Assembly (NCBI GenBank): GCA_020058315.1
Contig: JAGVEK010000152.1
Span: 1-35,877, forward strand
DNA length: 35,877 nucleotides
Origin: Candidatus Zixiibacteriota bacterium
GTDB taxonomy: Bacteria > Zixibacteria > MSB-5A5 > WJJR01
Reading direction: 5' to 3'
In this document: in pieces, positions 3-10,300 of the stretch
Position numbering within the stretch: position 1 is the stretch's first letter
Layout: each line of letters opens with the position of its first letter
Position numbers and translations under genes: made by a program
The notes under the pieces: generated by a model
Databases searched by the model: none
Told to the model about the DNA's origin: nothing
What the model saw: the letters and a program-made list of their open reading frames with translations, nothing else

Positions 3-1706
3 CTTGGTTCGGGCCTCGCCGACGCCCGCTCGGCTTTCATTGGGCAAGTGCAGGCCGAGGTCGAGCGAGTGATCAGGCAATCCATAGTGACCGGCAATCA
101 CTTTGCAGGCGTTCACGTCGAAGATTGGCCGGCAATGGCAAGGGACGTGGTGGCGCTGACTCAACGTGGTGTCCTTGATCCCCTGGTGCGGACACTCGAA
201 GGGCTTCTGGAGATGCGCGTCCAAAGCATCCTGGCAGAAAGCGCCGCAGCTCTGCGAGAGCGGACTTCGGCGAGCGATGGACCGGGGTTCTTCGCGCGCG
301 GCCGCCTTGCGCTGGCAACTTTGCGGCTTCTGGTTCGGCGACTGGATGCGGATGCGAAGAAACAGGATACCGGAGCCGCGTCATCCGCATCGGGAGAACC
401 ACCTGAACGGGAGATCGCATACTACCTGGATATGCTGCAACAGCATGCTGTGCCTCGGCCCGGGGTTGTTGCCCTATTCGTCCGCGCGCTAATGGTGGGA
501 TTGGGAGTGGCGGTAGTCGCAACTGCGTACTGGCCGCAGTCCGGGATAGCATCCATTTTCGGCGTTCCGCTTGGGTTATTGGCTGGGTCGGCGGCGGCAG
601 CTCTGTCGGCCCTGGGCCTATACGGTTGGCATGGTCCACTTCATCTCTGGAGTTGCCAGAGAATCCTGGCATCCATCCTGACCGCATTGGACGAACATCG
701 GCGGCGGCAAGGAGGGCGCATCCTGGAAACCCTTCGAAAACGCTGGGACGACGCGCTCCGTTCTGCGCTACACGCTGATCACCGGCGTGCGATGGATCGC
801 CTCGCAGCCGGGGGTTCGCCAGCGGACGAGGAGGCCAGCGACGTGCATATGGTTCCGCCAACGACGATTGCCGAAACTATTGCCGGCTACTATAGCGCGT
901 ACATGGCCGCTACGGAGGATCTGCGCGAGCGTCTTGCGCGACACGATCGCGATTGCTCGGCGTACCTGCAACATCTTCCACGGCTAGATGGACCGGCGCT
1001 GCAATGTCCAACTATACGCAGGATGCTCGACGGCGTTGTCCCGATTGAAGACAATCAGCCACCAGACCATTTGCGGCTAGCCGCGTGGTTGCTGCAGAAC
1101 TTTCGCCCGCTCACGTTGCCTCAATCGTCGGCTGAGCCGTTACCAGAGGATAGCTGGGTTGATTGGCTCAGGAGTTGCTGGGATTCGGTGCGGTCGTGCG
1201 CCCGTGCAAATGTCCGTACCCAGCTGCGCACGTGGAATGTCCATCGCCTCTTGTCTGAGGTCCCAGTGCGCGACCTGCTGCAGTTGAGTGCGGCGCAGCG
1301 CGAACGCAGCCTGGAGAACAGTCTTCACTCGCCGCAAGCCGAGGAGGTCGACCGTGCTCGGTTGCGCGCCCTGGCCCAGGAGGCCGTGGACAAGGCCCAA
1401 CCCCAGATTCCGGCCGTTACGATGCCGGAAGATGGGGTGTACTACGTCGGAACCGGTGAAAGCGACGATTACCTGATGATGGACCCACAGCTTCACGCGC
1501 GAGTGGATTCGGCCGTTGTGCGAACAGCAGACGGAACATTCACGGGTATCCTGCGCCTCGGGGTTGGCGGCATTTCTTGGTCAACGTTGGCGCATTCGCG
1601 GTCATATTACGGCACCCTCTGTGCGACTGCACATCGAGAACTGTCCGCCCGACTGGAGGTTCAGCCTATTCAGCTGAACGGGGTACTGGAAGGAGGCGGA
1701 GAATAA
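3..1706 (+). CDS. hypothetical membrane protein, 5' end cut by window edge
   Basis: The frame is open from base 3 (LGSGLADARSAFIGQ precedes the GTG listed at 48), so the true start is probably upstream of the window. The TAA at 1704-1706 overlaps the ATG of the next gene (TAATG). There are two hydrophobic helices (GVVALFVRALMVGLGVAVVATAYW; IFGVPLGLLAGSAAAALSALGLYGW). I recognised no catalytic motif. Confidence 0.6.
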   Translation, partial: LGSGLADARSAFIGQVQAEVERVIRQSIVTGNHFAGVHVEDWPAMARDVVALTQRGVLDPLVRTLEGLLEMRVQSILAESAAALRERTSASDGPGFFARGRLALATLRLLVRRLDADAKKQDTGAASSASGEPPEREIAYYLDMLQQHAVPRPGVVALFVRALMVGLGVAVVATAYWPQSGIASIFGVPLGLLAGSAAAALSALGLYGWHGPLHLWSCQRILASILTALDEHRRRQGGRILETLRKRWDDALRSALHADHRRAMDRLAAGGSPADEEASDVHMVPPTTIAETIAGYYSAYMAATEDLRERLARHDRDCSAYLQHLPRLDGPALQCPTIRRMLDGVVPIEDNQPPDHLRLAAWLLQNFRPLTLPQSSAEPLPEDSWVDWLRSCWDSVRSCARANVRTQLRTWNVHRLLSEVPVRDLLQLSAAQRERSLENSLHSPQAEEVDRARLRALAQEAVDKAQPQIPAVTMPEDGVYYVGTGESDDYLMMDPQLHARVDSAVVRTADGTFTGILRLGVGGISWSTLAHSRSYYGTLCATAHRELSARLEVQPIQLNGVLEGGGE

Positions 1707-3073
1707 TGGACGGCCGCATTCCAGAACCGCGTGCGATGAGCTGGATGTCCTCCGCGCCGTTCTTGCTGCTGGTCCTAGCCTTGCTTTCTATGGTCGCCGG
1801 CCTCTTGTACTTGCCATCGCCGCCGGGCGGTGCTGTCACCGTGGCTGCCTCTGGCGTGGCACTCAGCTTTTTGGGCTCTTTCTTGCTGGCCTTTGTCGCG
1901 CGCCACCGTCCAGGCGTTGGCATGGTACTGGCGGAGGCTATGATCGCTGCGTGGGGCCGAAGCTACGGGGCGTTGAGCGACACGAGCAAACAGCCGGTGG
2001 CCCCAGACGGTCCGGCATTCGGCCAGCCGTTGCGGCGACTGGACGTTTTTCTAACCGTGTCTTTGGCGGTAGCGGTTGGCTTGGCGCTTACGCGCCTTTC
2101 GCTGGCCGAATGGGCTTTCGCGGCCGGTGTGCTGGTATTAGCGAGCGCTCTGCTACTGAGCATCGGGAACGGGATCGCAACTGCAGACACCTCTCGATGG
2201 TCACTTCGCCAATCATCGGGCGACGATCAGCCTGACGAGGCGTTGGTGACGACGATGCGCCGGCAAAGTTCGCCGGCGGAAATGTTTAGCGCGCTTGGGG
2301 CACGGCAAAGCGTCTTAACACGAGAACATGCCACCGAAGAAGCTAAGGGAGTCAAGAAGGGCACGCAGCCCACTGTCGTGATCCGGCGAGTACAGACGGT
2401 GTTCTGCCGCACCAAGGTGTACGAGGAAGGAGGGCGGTTCCACGTTAGTTCCGAGGAAGTGGCTCGGGCTCCGTTCTTTCTGAGTGTCGACTTGGGGCGT
2501 CTTGAGGAACTTCGGCGACACAATCAAACCGAGCAAGCTACGCTTCGTGACCGTATTGTCACATCTCGGTCCGCCGGAATTTTCGAACTTGCTGCATTTC
2601 TCGAGGCCGGTTTTCGTAACCTGCGCCTCTCTCCACTCGACCGGATTGAGAGCACGCTCCAACTTTGCCAGCCCCCGAATATCGAGTACGAGTATGACGA
2701 TTCGCGGAAAAGCGTCTGCGATTTCGCGGGTAAAGTGATTGCTGACTACTGGAGGTACCCGCTCGAAACGTTGTACGACCGGCATGGTGACTGCGATTGT
2801 CACGCCATCTTGGCTGCCAGCCTGTTCTACACGCTCGGCTACGATTGTTGCGTGCTTGCGGTCGAGACCGACGCCGGTAGTCACCTCTCCATTGGCGTGG
2901 CCCCGCCGTCGGGGCCCTGTTTGCTTCCGGCCAGCGTATGCGTCCGGACCAACGGGCAAGAATATTACTACTGTGAGACCGCTGGCGCGTCGTGGCATGT
3001 AGGTGCGATACCGTCTGACGTAAAACTTGAGACCCTCTGCGTCCGGTGGTCATCGCGCGAGTCTCTGCCGTGA
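1706..3073 (+). CDS. polytopic membrane protein with C-terminal transglutaminase-like (papain-fold) cysteine peptidase domain
   Basis: I moved the start from the listed 1577 to ATG 1706, because AGGAGG lies at 1691-1696 (9-nt spacer) and the start overlaps the upstream stop as TAATG. The N-terminal ~190 aa contain several hydrophobic segments. The C-terminal HGDCDCHAILAASLFYTLGYDC ... GSHLSIGV ... YYYCETAG shows the Cys, His, acidic order typical of transglutaminase-core proteins (recalled pattern, not searched). Confidence 0.6.
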   Translation: MDGRIPEPRAMSWMSSAPFLLLVLALLSMVAGLLYLPSPPGGAVTVAASGVALSFLGSFLLAFVARHRPGVGMVLAEAMIAAWGRSYGALSDTSKQPVAPDGPAFGQPLRRLDVFLTVSLAVAVGLALTRLSLAEWAFAAGVLVLASALLLSIGNGIATADTSRWSLRQSSGDDQPDEALVTTMRRQSSPAEMFSALGARQSVLTREHATEEAKGVKKGTQPTVVIRRVQTVFCRTKVYEEGGRFHVSSEEVARAPFFLSVDLGRLEELRRHNQTEQATLRDRIVTSRSAGIFELAAFLEAGFRNLRLSPLDRIESTLQLCQPPNIEYEYDDSRKSVCDFAGKVIADYWRYPLETLYDRHGDCDCHAILAASLFYTLGYDCCVLAVETDAGSHLSIGVAPPSGPCLLPASVCVRTNGQEYYYCETAGASWHVGAIPSDVKLETLCVRWSSRESLP

Positions 3074-3122
3074 TTGACGACGCGTTTACCTGTGAGGACC
3101 TCACCTATCACGGAGCGTACGT

Positions 3123-4337
3123 ATGCAACCTGTCGACATCCTTGATCTAGTGCTCGTGGGCCTGATTGCGTTCTCCGCGCTTCGCGGATACTTAAAAGGC
3201 TTCATCCGTCCGGCGCTGGGCTTGTGTAGTTTGGTCGCTGCCGGGCTTATCGCGCGGGCCGCATACGAGTTGCTCGGGGCTGTTGACCCAGAGCTACTCG
3301 AGGACAGCGTGAACCGCGTTCTTGCCTTTCTCGTTCCGTTTCTCTTGATCCTTGCCATCTGCACTGCCGTCGTTCGTCGCATCCGCAAGCAGACGAAGGA
3401 ACTTGGGCTAGGCGGACTGGACCGAGCAGCTGGCGCGGCGATCGGCGTTGTCCGTGTATGCACGCTGCTGGCTCTCCTGCTGGTTCCACTTCAAACCCAT
3501 CCGATTGCTGGAGCGCCACTTCGCCAGTCGCTCGTGTTGCCGTGCATTGCGTACGGCGGATTCTTAAGCAAACTGGTTCTACCATCGATTCCGCTGACGG
3601 TTGCATCGGCTGCCACTGTTGATATCGAGGTCTTGATCGAGAGCACGATCGATGACATGGGGCAAATGACGAGAGTCATCCGCGTGCGCGGTCCGGACGA
3701 GTTCTTCCCGAGCGCGCACACCGAACTTCCGCTCCGAGCGCAAAACTGGAACGTGGAGAGCCAGCCGGCAGGCAGCGGTCGCCGTGAGCTGACCTACCGG
3801 GGGGGATTCGATCGCCGCGATGCCCCGCTCACCTGGCCGACTCGTGTCGATTGGCGCCTAGACCATACCGCATTCCGACGACGGTTGGACTTTCGCGAGA
3901 GCATTAACCTCAGTGAGATTCTATCTTCCGCTGACGGACCGTTTCAGGCTCAACACCGCCCGAACGAAGACACGCTCGATGCGGTATTCCGTGAATGGCG
4001 GCATTTATGGACGGACGTGCGCCGCCGCACAGCAAGCCGTGCCGCGAAGGAGATCGCCGTTCCAGTCACTGTTCGACTCACGGCGACGGGACCCTTGACT
4101 GGAGTCCAAGGCTTAGGCGCGACGGTTCATGAGAACTTGGCGCGTTGGGATCTTCAGATCGCTCCGGGCCAGACGTACGAACTGATCGCTTGGCAGCGTG
4201 ACTGGGGATGGGCTTCATGGGTTTCGTTGGCATCCGTGGCTGTTGCCACGGTAATTGGCGGAGTGACCTACTCACGGCGATGGTACAACCGCCAACTGCG
4301 GCGTTTACTCGAGAATTCTGATGAAAAAAGCCATTGA
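3123..4337 (+). CDS. CvpA-family membrane domain fused to an unknown ~250-aa domain with a C-terminal TM anchor
   Basis: GGAG lies 7 nt upstream of ATG 3123. The N-terminus DILDLVLVGLIAFSALRGYLKGFIRPALGLCSLVAAGLIA matches the CvpA (colicin V production) N-terminal signature, and further TM helices follow. Residues ~165-375 match nothing I recognise. A last helix is present (WASWVSLASVAVATVIGGV). Confidence 0.6.
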   Translation: MQPVDILDLVLVGLIAFSALRGYLKGFIRPALGLCSLVAAGLIARAAYELLGAVDPELLEDSVNRVLAFLVPFLLILAICTAVVRRIRKQTKELGLGGLDRAAGAAIGVVRVCTLLALLLVPLQTHPIAGAPLRQSLVLPCIAYGGFLSKLVLPSIPLTVASAATVDIEVLIESTIDDMGQMTRVIRVRGPDEFFPSAHTELPLRAQNWNVESQPAGSGRRELTYRGGFDRRDAPLTWPTRVDWRLDHTAFRRRLDFRESINLSEILSSADGPFQAQHRPNEDTLDAVFREWRHLWTDVRRRTASRAAKEIAVPVTVRLTATGPLTGVQGLGATVHENLARWDLQIAPGQTYELIAWQRDWGWASWVSLASVAVATVIGGVTYSRRWYNRQLRRLLENSDEKSH

Positions 4338-5667
4338 TTGGGACGCAATCCGGTATCGCGGCGATACGGAGGGCGTCCGCGAGCTGCATGATGTATACCG
4401 CGTCGAACATTATCTTCAAACCTATGAGCAGGGTCAGCGACAGCTTGACCAGAATATCAGGGACAAGTTCTTGGCCAATAGTATCCGGCTTTCCGAGCAG
4501 ATTTCTCCCCGGATCTTCGCCATCTACCGTGGGGTTTGTGAGAATCTAGGACTCGACATAGGGGCTGAAATATTCTGCACTCCCAGCTCCGAAGTAAACG
4601 CCGCTGCGATATTAGATACGCAAGAAGCAACGGACCATTGCCTCATTGGCGTGACCTCTGCGGCGCTGGAGAAACTTGAAGATGCTGAGATCGCCTCGAT
4701 TCTTGGCCACGAGCTCGGCCACTTTCTGTTCAAAAACCACCGCCTGAATGCCCTGATCAACGAAGCTAAGGATAATCCGGCTGTGACCGTCCTTCCGCCG
4801 CTCGGAGAGAGTCTCTTCTTGCGCTGGCGAAAGAAAGCCGAGATAAGCGCCGACCGGGTCGGGTTACTTGCCTGTGGGGATTTTGCGTCCGCCGCGCGCG
4901 GCCTTCTAAAGGCGACGTTTGGGTTGAGCGATCGCAACATCAATTTGAATATCGATGGCCTCTTGGCTCAGATCGATGAAGCGAAGGGAAGTCGCGAACT
5001 GATGAACGCCTCCTTCGAATCCCATCCGCTGTTGCCAATTCGGCTAAAGGCGCTCGAGCTGTTTTCACGATCTGAGAATGCCGCAACGAACGGATACGTC
5101 CCGGTGAGCCGTGACCGGCTCTCCGCTGACGCGCTCGAGGATGCCGTGGACAACCTGATGCGGCTAACCGCGCGTTACCCCGATACGCCAATAAGCCAGA
5201 CAGTAATGCGGACGGTCGCACTCGGCGGCGTACTTGTGCTCGCAGCGGATGGAGACATCAGCGAGTACGAGACGAAGATTATGATCGAAATTCTTCATCG
5301 CTACTTCACCGACGAACCTGAGAAAGAAATCGTGGTCGATACGCATCAACTGCGTGAACAACTCGACATTGCCCTGAAAAAGGTCAACGAACTCGGGGGC
5401 CACGATGATAAAGTATTCATTGTCTCCAGGCTCGCTGACATCGCCCTGGCCGACGGAGCCCTGATGAGCGAAGAGGGCGCTATCGTCTTGGAAATTGCAG
5501 AACGCCTCGGGCTTCCGGCGCGCACAGTCCATTCCGTGTTCGTCGGTGCCGCAGAAACCGTCGGATTCCGTGTGGACGTGAAGCTGAACCGCGTCGCCGA
5601 CGAGCTTCGGCGTTCGCTTCGTGTCGGTTGTGGATTGGCGCCAGTCGAACGCTCAACGCCACGATGA
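4321..5667 (+). CDS. M48-family zinc metallopeptidase fused to a TerB-like domain
   Basis: ATG 4321 overlaps the upstream gene by 17 nt. HELGH (in ILGHELGHFLF) is followed by EISADRVG, the third-ligand E..AD motif of M48/HtpX-type peptidases. The C-terminal half has two TerB-like segments (LAADGDISEYETKIMIEIL; ALADGALMSEEGAIVLEIAERLGL). Confidence 0.75.
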   Translation: MKKAIDWDAIRYRGDTEGVRELHDVYRVEHYLQTYEQGQRQLDQNIRDKFLANSIRLSEQISPRIFAIYRGVCENLGLDIGAEIFCTPSSEVNAAAILDTQEATDHCLIGVTSAALEKLEDAEIASILGHELGHFLFKNHRLNALINEAKDNPAVTVLPPLGESLFLRWRKKAEISADRVGLLACGDFASAARGLLKATFGLSDRNINLNIDGLLAQIDEAKGSRELMNASFESHPLLPIRLKALELFSRSENAATNGYVPVSRDRLSADALEDAVDNLMRLTARYPDTPISQTVMRTVALGGVLVLAADGDISEYETKIMIEILHRYFTDEPEKEIVVDTHQLREQLDIALKKVNELGGHDDKVFIVSRLADIALADGALMSEEGAIVLEIAERLGLPARTVHSVFVGAAETVGFRVDVKLNRVADELRRSLRVGCGLAPVERSTPR

Positions 5668-5818
5668 TCTGTTCAATGAACAATTCATCATCGCTCGACT
5701 GGCGTGAGCGTCCTCTGAACGCTTACCTCGATTCTCTGAGGGCCGAGCGCACGGTGCTTTCGCGATGAAGGAAGCATCGAGGATGCATTCAGCGAGGCAG
5801 GGGCGGGAGAATCGGGCT

Positions 5819-6160
5819 ATGATCATGTACGTACTTGTCGTTGAAGGCCCCTGCACCGGGCCGCCAGCAGTGGCTGTGTTCACCCAGGAGAAGCTCGCAG
5901 ATCAGGTTGCGAAGGATCCATGGGGCTCCCTAGGCTGGTGTACGACCCAGTCCTACCGCGTAGAGTGTGCCGAAGTCTCAGGAGCATACGCAAGTGGCCA
6001 GCCGGTCTTTGCTGCGCACCGTCACGTGGAGGGGGCTGCCAGCTCCGCATGGGAGGTCTATCGGTTTGCGGGTCTCTACGCTGCGTTTGAGGAGGCTGAG
6101 AAAGCTGCCGGTGATCTCGGCGTCGTTAGGGAGATTGATCCAGATGCGTATGCGGATTGA
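5819..6160 (+). CDS. small hypothetical protein (start uncertain; ORF open from 5765)
   Basis: ATG 5819 is preceded by GGGAGAA (5805-5811). It gives a 113-aa product with no recognised motif. Called on ORF length and position in a co-directional cluster only. Confidence 0.4.
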   Translation: MIMYVLVVEGPCTGPPAVAVFTQEKLADQVAKDPWGSLGWCTTQSYRVECAEVSGAYASGQPVFAAHRHVEGAASSAWEVYRFAGLYAAFEEAEKAAGDLGVVREIDPDAYAD

Positions 6161-6186
6161 CTCCTCTCGATTGCGCGTAAACCACC

Positions 6187-6207
6187 GCGCGGCCTAATTG
6201 GCCGTGC
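6187..6207 (+). terminator. GC-rich hairpin downstream of the small ORF (possible terminator, no U-tract)
   Basis: GCGCGGCC (6187-6194), loop TAATT, GGCCGTGC (6200-6207): an 8-bp stem with one G-U pair. No T-run follows it. Confidence 0.25.
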
Positions 6208-6329
6208 TACTGCTCCTGTCGAGCCCGCTGGCCCGCGAATGTCGGTTCGCAGCAGTCGGCCAAAGCTGCTCTGGCCATTTGCCTGGATGGCGGCAGCTGA
6301 CGGTCTTGCTTGCGCTTGGCTGACGGAGA

Positions 6330-7262
6330 ATGCAAATGGACCTAATCAACTTGTCCTCCGAGTACGATCAGAAGCTTTACGGATGGCTTCCGCGTGACTT
6401 GATTGCTGAGAAGGTCGTGTTCTTTCCCGACGCCTGTCCGGGCAAGGCGCCCTTGCCCACTGGGACGGCAACGCTACTGAGGCGCGACGACTGGATGCGG
6501 TTCGCGATCTCGGACTGCGGTTGCGGCATGCGCTTGATGCGCAGCACCATGACCACCTCGGATCTGACGCCACAGCGCTGGGAGCGAGTCGCTGACCGCC
6601 TGTGCAGCAACAAGGGCTCCCTGGGCGATCTCGGTGGCGGCAATCACTTTCTCGATGCCCTCGAACCTCATTCTAGAAAGCAAATGTACTTCCTAATTCA
6701 CACCGGCAGCCGCAGTGAGTCGGGCTTAGTGAATGCGCTTGTCGATCAGCCCGCGAAGTTTGACCGCGAGTTCTCCCGGATCGTCGGCTGGGCCCGAGAC
6801 AACCGCGCCGCGGTTCAAGAAGCTCTCGAGGCGGAGTTCGGCGACTTGGAACTGGTGCTGGATCTGCCGCACAACACATACGAAGTACTGCCTGATGGCG
6901 GTGTCATTATCCGTAAAGGAGCAGTTCGTGTCGAACCGGGCGACCTAAACGTGATACCGTCGCACCTAGCGGGCGACGTAGCACTAGTGCGGGCAACGAA
7001 CGCCGTCCGAGGCACTTTGTTATCTCTGAGTCACGGCACCGGGCGGAAGATGGCGCGGTCGGCATCCAAGGGCCTGGCTGACGCCTACGATTTCGAGTCG
7101 CTGCGCCGGTGTGTGCTGATGCCGAATCGCATCAGCGATAGCTCGCTCCGAACCGAGGGCCCCTACGCCTACCGTGAACTGGGTGACTGCCTGAGTTTGC
7201 TGGAGGGCTACGTCGAGCTAGTCGAGCAGTTCAGCATCGTCGGCTACATCGGCCATCTCTAA
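6330..7262 (+). CDS. compact RtcB-family RNA ligase homologue (310 aa)
   Basis: The RtcB motifs appear in the canonical order: FFPDACPGK (canonical PDAHxG as I recall it), ISDCGCGM (DxGCGM), GGGNHFLD (GxGNHFxE), HTGSRSESG (HxGSRGxG), HNTYE, IRKGA, LSHGTGRKM (HGAGR) and PYAYRELGDC (P.AYKd). An alternative start is ATG 6336, with GGAGA 6 nt upstream. Confidence 0.75.
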   Translation: MQMDLINLSSEYDQKLYGWLPRDLIAEKVVFFPDACPGKAPLPTGTATLLRRDDWMRFAISDCGCGMRLMRSTMTTSDLTPQRWERVADRLCSNKGSLGDLGGGNHFLDALEPHSRKQMYFLIHTGSRSESGLVNALVDQPAKFDREFSRIVGWARDNRAAVQEALEAEFGDLELVLDLPHNTYEVLPDGGVIIRKGAVRVEPGDLNVIPSHLAGDVALVRATNAVRGTLLSLSHGTGRKMARSASKGLADAYDFESLRRCVLMPNRISDSSLRTEGPYAYRELGDCLSLLEGYVELVEQFSIVGYIGHL

Positions 7263-7331
7263 CAGGCTTGTGATTGGAGCGGAAACGCATCCGACTTGTC
7301 GACAACTTCTGCAGAGGGCAGAATCCAAGGT

Positions 7332-10300
7332 ATGCAGCCCCAAGAGCGACGCACGCGACTCCGTAGCGCGACGCTGGCGCGCGGACGGATGTTCCTAAAG
7401 GCAGAGCTTGGATGGCTACCGGGCTTCCCGATCGGCAAACAGCGTGGCATCGTCAAATGGGTGTCGGTCCCCAGCGATGGCAACCAGGGTCCTAAGCAGA
7501 TCGAATTGGATCGACAGCAGCTTCACCGTGCGGGCTACAACTACACCAAGCTGGTCTGCCACTTTCCAAGAGTGCTGCCGCGGCTCGTCGAGACCGTCGA
7601 GTGGTGGAAGCAGGGCGTCAGCAATATTCTCGGTTGGCTCAATGACGCTATCCACAAAGGCAAGTCACTACCGGTTTCGCTGCTCACCGAGGAGAACCAT
7701 TACAGCCCCGGGGCGATCAAGTTGGCGGGACAGCTTGCTACAGACAATCCCAAGCTGCGCCATTTTGTGGCGACCTTGTCGTGGGTCCACTATTTATCTC
7801 CTCGCGATTTCGGAAACGCTCTGCGCTGGGCGCGAGACAACGCTGCCACGATCGCGCTGTTGGGCGATGCGATGCAAGGAACGGAGGGCATTCTGGAGCC
7901 GCTTGTCCTTTGGGAGCTTGTGCGCCGTGACGGGACTCGGCTTGTGCAGCCGCTGATCCGGTTTTTCGGAGAGCGGCGAAGCTACACTTGTCCAACTCAT
8001 GGAAGCGAGGAGTTCCGGAATCGGCTTCGCTTTTTACTCGGGGAGCTCAGGGAGCACAAGCGGCTCGAAGAACTGCCGGTCCTCCCTCGCCCCGATCTCA
8101 CCGAGCACCTCCGGCGCTTCTCGCAATGGCTGATCCAACAAGACGAGGGCACCCGTCGCAGGGCGCTGGGTCTTCTCGACTTGGTGTTGTCACTTTCATT
8201 GCTGGATCCATGGGAACGGTGGTGGACCAGCTGTGGAGATGCAATTAAGCGCATCCGAACGCTGGAGGCGGCGCGTCCATTCTTGGAAACAAGTCAACTC
8301 AAGGAACTCAAGGGACGAATACATCAAGTGAATCAAACAGTCAACAGACTCGCTGCGGTTTTTCCGCCACAGATCCACATCGATTCAGTCATCGAGTGCG
8401 TCCAAAGTACTTCGCTTCCCAGCCGGAAATCGTTTCACCAAGCGGTCGTGACAAACATGAGGCTGTTGCCAGAAAGCAATAGAAAGGTGTTTACTCGAGC
8501 CGCGTTCTTGTGGCACTGGTGCCGCTTGGAGACTGTGCACGGAAGTAAGCTGACAGAGTACCTGCGGGAGTTCCGCTCGTATCAGCAAACGTACGCGGAG
8601 CATGAACGGTTGTTAGGTCCTTGGACATACAACTTCGAAGAGTGGGAGGACCCAAATCTTAGGCGGTGGTTACCGACTGACCCTGTGATGGATCAACACC
8701 AGTGGAGGGCTGCGTTCAAAGCTCTAGCGCGTTTCGCAGAGGGATATGAGGATCCGTTGACCTTTGATGAGGCAGAATGGATCTGCGTACTTGCGCCGTT
8801 TTCCCGATCAGCCGAAGAGACGTGCGAACGCTTCCGTGCCCTGTGCGCGGCCCAACTCACTAGGCCCTGGCACTCATGGGAGAGCCTGATCTCCTTCACG
8901 AGCCGCCTGTCCACGAGTGCCGATGATTTCGCCAAGTTGTTCGGCATCTTGGACAAGAGTGAAGCAACACAATCGCTCGATACTCAAGACCTGATCAAGC
9001 TTCAGACGAAACTGGAGCGCGCCGGCTGGACCACCTTGCTCCGGACTGCAATCTTGGGTGGGAAGGCCAAAGACGTCGTATACTTGCACCACTTGACTAA
9101 GGTCTTCTCGGCGCTTTCTCACGCCATTGCTCCACCACCAGCCCCAAGCGATCCCACTGTACCCGAGTGGGCTGCGGCGTATCCCACAGATGTTCGTCGC
9201 GCTCTGGTCTGCCTGAATGCCGCGACCCCTGATGCGCAAGCGCTGGGCGCGCGCATTCTGAAGGATGTGTTTCCTGACTCGGGGCGGGTTCAAGAAGAGA
9301 TTGAGGCAATCGAAAAGCAGATCCGGCTGCGACCGGCTGATGACAGGCTAAAAGTGCGACTCGCCAACTTGACGAGGCGACAAGCAGTTGTGTCCTCGCC
9401 TAGAGAATCCCAGATCCACAAAGCAATCGAGCGAATTGATCGAGCCACCTGCTCAGCAGTGCTCTCGACTTGGCGCGCCAAACTCGAGGCTGAGCTAGCC
9501 TCCGCCGTGCGCAGCATGCTGAAGATAGACGGGGGCGTTTCGTGGCTGTTTGAAACAAAGCACTTACAGGCATGGTTTTCGGCTCTTGAGCTAACTGGTT
9601 CCACGAAGGCATTGGCGCTCGACCTCTTTCGGCGACGGTGTCAACCTCCTCCTTGGAGTTTGCACGACCATCCGGCAAATCGGGCGTTTCTCAAGAAGAT
9701 GAAGGCGCAGGGGCTGGACATGGCTCCCTGGCTTGAATCCGGCAAGGCTTGGGAATGGAAGACACGGAACGGACTTAGACTGACCGTCCGATTCGAAGAG
9801 GATCCTCTGGAGATTTTCCAAATGGGCGCCTACTTTGATACTTGTCTTTCTCCCGGAAGCTTCAATTTCTTTTCAGTCTTTGCTAACGCCGCAGACGTAA
9901 ACAAGAAAGTTCTTTTCGCCCGAGATCAGCGTAACCTCGTGGTTGGGCGGTGCCTTCTCGCGCTCAGCGATGCCGGAGGAATCCTCGTTTTTCGTCCCTA
10001 TTGCCACGACTTCGAGGCCGGGTTTGCCCAGTACGTCAACAGCCTCGCTGCCGATTTGGCCAAGCACATGGGTACGATTGTCGTTCCGCGGGGTTCTATC
10101 TCAACGCTGGTGTCAACCGACTGGTACGACGACGGGCCGCAAGACCTCTGCGACCGGTTCACCTGTTTGCACGAGAATTCAGAATTCCGCCGAGCGCTGC
10201 CAACGGTGGAGCTTACGTCCCTCCGGGCGCTCATCGATGAGGCGTTTGACCCTCTGCCGGTTAACTCGCTTTCTCTTTCTCTGATTCTGGATCTTTCGGA

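Follow-up and report, generated by a model that had tools for sequence, protein, structure and literature searches.

We analyzed the complete sequence of contig JAGVEK010000152.1 (GenBank assembly GCA_020058315.1; 35,877 nucleotides), assigned to a Candidatus Zixiibacteriota bacterium and referred to below as the window. The window makes up the whole of contig C498 in a metagenome-assembled genome (MAG) of 571 contigs that is 59% complete. At its start, four consecutive plus-strand genes, g1 to g4 (positions 3–5667; Table 1), encode a large protein with a predicted transmembrane (TM) hairpin, a membrane-anchored protein with a transglutaminase (TGase)-like domain, a fusion of a CvpA module with a β-rich extension and a fusion of an M48 peptidase with a TerB domain. 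We consider it probable that these genes are the 3′ half of an eight-gene variant of the FtsZl1-vWA operons and that their products would act, by the mechanism proposed below, as a membrane-spanning machine.

Table 1. Features of the window, of contig C108 and of the loci compared with them. Positions refer to the window unless another contig or locus is named; numbers in gene orders are protein lengths in amino acids (aa).
Feature	Position	Strand	Description
g1 (operon gene 5)	3–1706	+	~945-aa protein; 5′ open, 567 aa read
g1/g2 overlap	1704–1708	+	TAATG; g1 TAA 1704–1706, g2 ATG 1706–1708
g2 (operon gene 6)	1706–3073	+	455 aa; TM and TGase-fold peptidase (putative)
g2–g3 gap	3074–3122		49 nt; GGAG ahead of g3 ATG at 3123
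g3 (operon gene 7)	3123–4337	+	404 aa; CvpA and LppM-like (predicted)
g3/g4 overlap	4321–4337	+	17 nt; g4 ATG 4321, g3 TGA 4335–4337
g4 (operon gene 8)	4321–5667	+	448 aa; M48-TerB
Operon gene 1	C108	-	exported vWA protein, 856 aa
Operon gene 2	C108	-	membrane-anchored vWA protein, 637 aa
Operon gene 3	C108	-	membrane protein, 398 aa
Operon gene 4 (FtsZl1)	C108:378–1367	-	Tubulin_2
Genes downstream of g4	5765–10682	+	131-aa open reading frame, short RtcB-like gene, 1128-aa protein
Flank marker, window	29003–32197		1063-aa open reading frame
Flank marker, C108	C108:1–12000 (region)		periplasmic binding protein
Collinear operon	L092		from a 1.1-Mb contig; vWA 833 / 635 / 365 / Tubulin_2 1000 / 947 / 477 / 431 (Colicin_V) / 515 (PGAP1-like hydrolase)
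Collinear operon	L093		vWA / 630 / 370 / Tubulin_2 1004 / 945 / 449 / start of CvpA gene
Collinear operon	L095		...362 / 476 / 423 (Colicin_V) / 459 (PGAP1-like)
Four-gene operons			Ignavibacteria MAG (L019/L026); deltaproteobacterial MAG (L087); G038 and L105 (window's own class); L017; four more metagenome contigs
~720-aa FtsZl1 paralogs	L019:17933–20098; L087:5666–7849; L105:5486–7699		third gene of the four-gene operons
TGase-like gene	L021:2–382		GDSDGH in place of the Cys motif
Large TGase-like frame	L091:3104–8143	-	1680-aa frame (G091, Planctomycetota)
M48-TerB locus	L022		60 nt after TGase-like gene; 2.9-kb contig, no Tubulin_2 gene on contig
M48-TerB loci	L017, L019		0.8–1.4 kb upstream of vWA gene
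M48-TerB locus	L097:1–10644		tight array: Tubulin_2 1115 / 922 / 432 / 200-aa radical SAM (Fer4_12, activase-like) / M48-TerB / 178 / 253-aa M50B-like peptidase; no match to TGase HMM (hidden Markov model)
ATPase–M48-TerB loci	L027–L031, L037, L039, L040, L042, L045, L070, L072, L075, L078		ATPase ~2 kb upstream of match

The preliminary description of this DNA had reported four consecutive genes on one strand joined by a TAATG overlap, a 49-nt gap and a 17-nt overlap, and all of these features are present in the sequence. The start codons of g2, g3 and g4 each agree with the N termini of their homologs in alignments (24 homologs for g4), and the g2 ATG is preceded by GGAGG about 11 nt upstream. 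A promoter and terminator scan gave a signal no better than in shuffled sequences. The tight junctions make co-transcription of g1 to g4 very likely, in agreement with the earlier proposal of a single operon, and the 17-nt overlap suggests that g4 is expressed with the operon here.

A probable eight-gene operon of the FtsZl1-vWA class

The preliminary description had also suspected that the module extended beyond the window, and its upstream half was traced to a second contig of this MAG, C108. This contig carries the only Tubulin_2 (PF13809) gene in the whole MAG (119 bits, cut-off 27), which points outward and is 3′-open at the contig end after 492 aa. The glycines of its G-box (GIGGTGAA) and T4 loop (CGGTGCG) are intact, with G42, G44, G47 and G183–G188 invariant among eight FtsZl1 proteins. 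Upstream of FtsZl1 on the same strand lie genes for two vWA proteins and a membrane protein. The first vWA protein (856 aa) is exported, scores 49.5 bits against VWA_2 and has the metal-ion-dependent adhesion site (MIDAS) motif DQSES; the second (637 aa) is membrane-anchored and carries a MIDAS of its own, DVSAS, and its ortholog matches VWA_2 weakly.

Three metagenomic contigs (L092, L093 and L095), reached through g2 homologs with 49–58% identity in the C-terminal domain, hold related operons. Every protein encoded on the C108 minus strand and in the window, from the vWA protein through g3, matches its counterpart on these contigs in matching order. Because the gene order is collinear with that of L092 and L093, we take C108 and the window to be neighbors; the missing ~2.6 kb between them would encode the second half of FtsZl1 along with the N-terminal ~340 residues of g1.

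In this arrangement, the four genes are not a self-contained module, and their combination, which the preliminary description had been unable to assign to a described pathway, can be placed in a known class. The genes g1 to g3 are genes 5–7 of a longer collinear operon, and the combination fits the FtsZl1-vWA operons, a computationally predicted class for which a membrane-remodeling role has been proposed (Makarova & Koonin 2010, PMC2875224). Co-location in other genomes, which the preliminary description had named as a check, was found for g1, g2 and g3 but not for all four genes together. Where the closest operon relatives reach far enough, the position of g4 is taken by a gene for a PGAP1-like hydrolase in L092 and L095 and by an unrelated 150-aa gene in L021. 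That the four genes form an autonomous, stoichiometric membrane module of their own kind is hardly credible. The tight junctions among them would suit such a module, but g1 is 5′-truncated and has homologs of ~945 aa, vWA and FtsZl1 genes precede g1 to g3 in every case with upstream sequence, and the four genes never occur together elsewhere among the loci examined.

Judged by its gene content, the operon is a member of the FtsZl1-vWA class, for which Makarova & Koonin (2010) described lineage-specific membrane partners and, in their supplement, vWA-FtsZl1-B5-B12 arrays (PMC2875224). It shares with these arrays an exported vWA protein with intact MIDAS, FtsZl1, a large domainless protein and a peptidase-type membrane protein, and with the class as a whole a sporadic distribution and membrane-associated partners. 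The protein g1 and B5 are alike by position and description. The window operon differs from the arrays of 2010 in having, ahead of FtsZl1, a second vWA gene and an additional gene for a membrane protein, a short TGase protein (~455 aa, four TM helices) instead of the giant B12, an added CvpA/LppM-like fusion and a terminal M48-TerB gene, and in lacking a gene for a protein kinase, OmpA or a P-loop GTPase. The class is thus known, and the variant, with its two vWA genes, short TM-TGase gene, CvpA/LppM-like fusion and terminal M48-TerB gene, has not been described before.

Locus neighborhoods were read by same-strand neighbor analysis combined with HMM scans. A second, shorter operon type has four genes in the order vWA, FtsZl1, a ~720–760-aa protein and a ~340–390-aa TM-TGase protein (Table 1). 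Across the two operon types, the TGase-like gene is last in the FtsZl1 operon at 14 loci. A CvpA gene comes after the TGase-like gene at six loci (the window, L092, L093, L095, L021 and L087, the last with a plain 182-aa CvpA). The operon type is rare in the phylum of the window, where 7 of 285 genomes contain the TGase-type gene; the three genomes from the window's genus all lack it.

The three genes that follow g4 on its strand (a 131-aa open reading frame, a short RtcB-like gene and a gene for a 1128-aa protein) have no counterpart near the FtsZl1 and M48-TerB loci examined. They were left out of the system because they never co-occur with the examined FtsZl1 loci. Apparent parallels between the window and L019 (a B12-radical SAM protein, a periplasmic binding protein and a large unknown protein) were dropped, as these proteins share no sequence similarity.

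The membrane proteins g1, g2 and g3

The part of g1 in the window is the C-terminal 567 aa of a ~945-aa protein, whose first ~340 residues are cut off by the end of the contig. An exhaustive HMMER search returned only five relatives, 889–947 aa long, which align from their own residue ~340 to ~903. Neither the window protein nor these relatives contain a Pfam domain, and no relative was found in the PDB. The orthologs in L092 (947 aa) and L093 (945 aa) are encoded directly 3′ of the Tubulin_2 gene. Hydropathy indicates a central TM hairpin at window residues ~155–200, and the L092 ortholog has no N-terminal signal sequence, from which it follows that both large parts of g1 are probably cytoplasmic. 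The N terminus of the g1 family aligns weakly, in collinear fashion, with the FtsZl1 tubulin domain, with degenerate G-box and T4 glycines (hhalign probability 31%, E value 5e-4). On these grounds, g1 is likely, if unproven, to be a degenerate, membrane-anchored paralog of FtsZl1. We also considered whether g1 might be the missing C terminus of FtsZl1 and rejected this, as its homologs are separate proteins of 889–947 aa that contain no Tubulin_2 domain and, in L092, follow a complete 1000-aa FtsZl1.

The ~720-aa protein of the four-gene operons is a clear, divergent FtsZl1 paralog (hhalign probability 91%, E value 9e-7 over 471 columns), and these operons accordingly encode a tubulin-like pair. 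A profile comparison of the g1 family with this 722-aa family was not significant (probability 0.4%).

For g2, the preliminary description had proposed a TM-anchored transglutaminase-like peptidase, and family matches, a profile match to LapG structures in the PDB and a fold search all bear this out, although the Pfam score of g2 itself is below threshold. Scored alone, the window protein reaches 16.1 bits against DUF553 (PF04473; cut-off 20.5), and nine of 11 g2 homologs match the same profile at an E value of at most 0.1 (best 5.9e-08). The g2 family profile matches the LapG structures 4fgo and 4u65 over a DYW..P.E.L..GDC motif, and the g2 nucleophile motif DYWRYPLETL..R.GDCDC corresponds to the nucleophile region of LapG. 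In an AlphaFold2 model, the C-terminal domain has predicted local distance difference test (pLDDT) values of 80–90, and of its top 50 Foldseek matches in the PDB, all but two flagellar doublet-microtubule entries have the transglutaminase fold. The putative triad consists of C363, H393 and E424; in the alignment, H393 and E424 are invariant and C363 is kept in 10 of 11 sequences. Four TM helices are predicted by hydropathy, and the N terminus and second loop are rich in Lys and Arg, so that the peptidase domain would be cytoplasmic under the positive-inside rule. The protein is therefore probably a four-TM thiol peptidase that faces the cytoplasm.

With LapG and other BTLCP enzymes (Peptidase_C93) and with DUF553, g2 shares the DYW..P.E.L..GDC(E/D) motif, a Cys-His-acid triad and the transglutaminase fold. 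LapG is a soluble, periplasmic, calcium-dependent enzyme that LapD recruits to cleave an adhesin (PMC3032545). Unlike LapG, g2 has four TM anchors, a domain predicted to be cytoplasmic and Glu as its third triad residue, and no LapD- or LapA-like gene was found among the operon proteins.

Several g2-domain relatives depart from this pattern. At L021, beside the only close homolog of the CvpA fusion, the TGase-like protein reads GDSDGH, with Ser and Gly replacing Cys363 and Cys365; it may use Ser as its nucleophile or have lost activity. At L091, a TGase-like domain lies inside a 1680-aa frame downstream of a 1416-aa Tubulin_2 frame, an architecture nearer to the giant B12 type than to the short form of the window. 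Most metagenomic relatives of the g2 domain (L108–L187) are ~420-aa DUF553 proteins on low-GC, apparently archaeal contigs, where their neighbors are housekeeping genes, including a leucyl-tRNA-synthetase-like gene at 22 of 80 loci and a methyltransferase gene at 20 of 80. Tubulin_2 occurred at only four of the 80 loci in this metagenome scan, which was seeded with the TGase alignment. As it recovered mostly archaeal DUF553 genes in housekeeping settings, the scan cannot serve as a census of the operon.

The third protein, g3, matches Colicin_V/CvpA (PF02674) at 81 bits (cut-off 29.3) over residues 7–143, covering 140 of 144 profile positions. Its layout comprises a four-TM CvpA module, a β-rich domain of ~200 aa, a C-terminal TM helix and a basic tail; from the distribution of hydrophobic and charged residues (hydropathy and positive-inside rule), the extension is predicted to be extracytoplasmic and the basic tail cytoplasmic. 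Besides the operon orthologs in L092 and L095, only one full-length homolog was found among 5.8 billion proteins. The AlphaFold2 model, built from four sequences, is of medium confidence (pLDDT 68). In this model, the best PDB match of the extension by Foldseek is Mycobacterium tuberculosis LppM (2nc8; E value 3.2e-06, TM-score 0.55), a glycolipid-binding pseudo-barrel followed by a C-terminal TM helix. No Pfam profile other than Colicin_V was matched at an E value of 0.01 or better; the LppM/DUF3153 profile was among those without a match, and the likeness to LppM is therefore structural only. The extension is modeled as a periplasmic, LppM-like β domain, possibly lipid-binding, which, as in LppM, precedes a C-terminal TM helix. 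In joining a CvpA-like four-TM module to a predicted periplasmic domain, g3 also resembles MarP, to whose N terminus it has a weak NCBIfam match, but its added domain is no protease.

M48-TerB as the last gene

The last protein, g4, exceeds the Pfam cut-offs for both Peptidase_M48 (44.2 bits against 20.3) and TerB (PF05099; 37 bits against 24.4, residues 303–404). These two assignments of the preliminary description, like that of CvpA in g3, are hence supported above threshold. The protein contains HELGH (residues 130–134), E174 within EISAD and an SHP..P.R motif, and H130, E131, H134 and E174 are invariant over 25 g4 homologs. It thereby resembles M48 peptidases such as HtpX, Ste24 and BepA, which likewise have HExxH, a downstream Glu in ExxAD and an SHP..R motif; a weak NCBIfam match is to HtpX, and its only sequence relative in the PDB is an HtpX fragment (E value 0.008). 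Unlike HtpX, Ste24 and BepA, g4 has no TM or other hydrophobic segment and no signal peptide, in line with the soluble enzyme predicted earlier. Its TerB domain links it to TerB itself, to the N terminus of DjlA and to TerB-domain proteins of Shango and Bunzi, but the helicase and ATPase partners of Shango are absent here.

M48-TerB proteins form a family with 439 matches, 55–69% identical across phyla (mean column identity 67%). The family spans at least eight phyla, among them Acidobacteriota, Fibrobacterota, Eisenbacteria, Myxococcota, Ignavibacteria and Planctomycetota, but none of 60 genomes related to that of the window contains a member. Its tree contains large clades that follow taxonomy, one of 25 Acidobacteriota and one of 16 mostly Fibrobacterota sequences, with FtsZl1-linked copies in at least three separate lineages. 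In an acidobacterial (Vicinamibacterales) clade of 13 genomes, the M48-TerB gene lies 3–175 nt downstream of a gene for a ~650-aa OLD/AriA/GajA-like ABC ATPase with AAA_15 and AAA_21 domains (PADLOC matches to AriA at E 2e-23 and to Old at E 5e-17). The OLD-type ATPase and M48-TerB could constitute an undescribed two-gene ATPase–protease pair.

In four of six M48-TerB contexts examined, an FtsZl1 operon or the TGase gene of one lies no more than 10 kb away (Table 1). Only five of 50 species-representative M48-TerB genomes also contain a Tubulin_2 gene, and in four of these five the two genes share a contig at a distance of 4–30 kb; by our own estimate, ~1% per genome would be expected by chance (30-kb radius, 5-Mb genome). 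The closest relatives of the operon (L092 and L095) carry at the g4 position a gene for a TM-anchored PGAP1/DUF676-like serine hydrolase. In our reading, M48-TerB is an independently evolving enzyme that was repeatedly recruited as an accessory, exchangeable last gene.

Several points weigh against an operon of eight genes that act together. Where M48-TerB is concerned, 45 of the 50 representative genomes have no Tubulin_2 gene, L092, L095 and L021 have no M48-TerB gene, and the protein looks vertically inherited in Acidobacteriota and Fibrobacterota. The same observations, together with unrelated contexts elsewhere (GAF histidine kinase, response regulators and penicillin amidase), would suit an M48-TerB protein that is functionally independent, for example a quality-control protease of the cytoplasm or membrane face, in which case the operon proper would end at g3. 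We regard such independence as unlikely, given the 17-nt overlap with g3, the recurrence next to FtsZl1 or TGase-like loci, five in all and spread over three or more lineages of the M48-TerB tree, and the contig shared in four of the five two-gene genomes.

Other points concern the reconstruction. The C108–window junction was inferred by collinearity, not read directly. Public reads provided no bridge, as the two runs holding the sequence gave four 151-nt unitigs, none at a contig end. Flank markers of both contigs (Table 1) have no orthologs in 14 same-family genomes. It follows that both contigs represent strain-specific accessory DNA or else a binning error, which makes the host assignment uncertain, and that no empty insertion site can be defined. 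The source MAG is itself only 59% complete. At the protein level, the g1–tubulin match is weak (hhalign probability 31%) and topologies rest on hydropathy and positive-inside counting only. Finally, we know of no experimental data for any FtsZl1 system.

Proposed mechanism and biological role

With these points weighed, we still favor an eight-gene, membrane-spanning machine. Its gene order, folds and motifs, aligned catalytic residues and recurring partners are direct readings, and from this anatomy we infer how it may work. Outside the cytoplasmic membrane, a ligand from the envelope or the surroundings would be bound by both vWA proteins, through their MIDAS motifs, and by the LppM-like domain of g3. 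The 398-aa protein, g1, g2 and g3, as membrane subunits, would relay this signal to the cytoplasmic face, where FtsZl1 would assemble in a GTP-dependent manner on g1, which would act as a hairpin-anchored scaffold. The conserved enzymatic output would be the g2 thiol peptidase, cutting either part of the assembly itself or a target close to the membrane. The final gene would supply a swappable membrane-proximal hydrolase, here a zinc peptidase brought to the inner membrane face by TerB and, in the closest relatives, the TM-anchored PGAP1-like serine hydrolase. The net effect could be local membrane remodeling or breaching, in the service of envelope maintenance or of defense.

A purpose in conflict or defense appears possible but rather doubtful. 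Here, an outside-in envelope sensor made of the vWA and LppM-like domains would trigger a tubulin-like assembly and set free membrane-directed hydrolases as abortive-infection effectors, namely the TGase-fold peptidase and, as the swappable component, M48-TerB or a PGAP1-like lipase. The patchy distribution (of the TGase-type gene in the phylum and genus, and of M48-TerB, absent from the 60 relatives) would fit this purpose, as would the exchangeable terminal hydrolase and the position of M48-TerB directly behind an OLD/AriA/GajA-like ATPase gene in the acidobacterial clade of 13. Defense-related and mobile genes also occur nearby: RmuC and a type I restriction-modification system in the window, RAMP genes by L092, PglZ and an SNF2 helicase by L017, and HicA and transposases near other loci. 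This link is a neighborhood observation. A further point in favor is that two defense systems, Shango and Bunzi, include TerB proteins.

Moreover, tubulin-vWA-GTPase cassettes of the GAP1-N2 type in Firmicutes and Actinobacteria have been treated as conflict systems (Kaur et al. 2020, PMC7159879). The window operon resembles these in its tubulin-family protein, membrane or extracellular vWA proteins and variable effectors, but the defining GAP1-type P-loop GTPase is missing: none of the eight operon proteins contains a Walker A motif or gave a GTPase Pfam match.

Against a defense purpose, no PADLOC model matches the operon proteins meaningfully. When all of them were searched against PADLOC-DB 2.0, the sole match was a marginal one of the g4 TerB domain to PDC-S48 (E value 0.002 over 47 residues), with nothing for FtsZl1, the vWA proteins, g1, g2 or g3. 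The anti-phage or envelope-stress link drawn in the preliminary description accordingly stays conjectural. In addition, M48-TerB is highly conserved (55–69% identity) and tracks taxonomy, unlike fast-evolving defense effectors. A more specific version, which we hold to be unlikely, is an outside-in envelope immune machine in which periplasmic vWA and glycolipid-binding LppM-like sensors would respond to phage attack or envelope damage. They would act through a membrane-anchored heteropolymer of active FtsZl1 and degenerate g1 on the tethered peptidase g2 and a swappable last-gene effector (the M48 zinc peptidase targeted by TerB here, a PGAP1-like lipase in sister operons), killing or arresting the infected cell. 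If true, bacteria would possess an immune system that is based on tubulin and has modular effectors.

Independent of the purpose of the operon, M48-TerB emerges as a conserved, uncharacterized family of soluble enzymes with more than 400 members that repeatedly docks onto FtsZl1 operons, and the predicted periplasmic LppM-like domain provides a first structural lead for the CvpA extension. The exchange of a zinc peptidase for a serine hydrolase in the last gene offers a concrete, testable hypothesis on the output of the system. Few cytoskeleton-type systems that are widespread in prokaryotes lack experimental data, and FtsZl1-vWA operons belong to these few. The eight-gene variant, with a TGase protein of 455 aa rather than a giant one exceeding 1400 aa, is compact, clonable and mutable.

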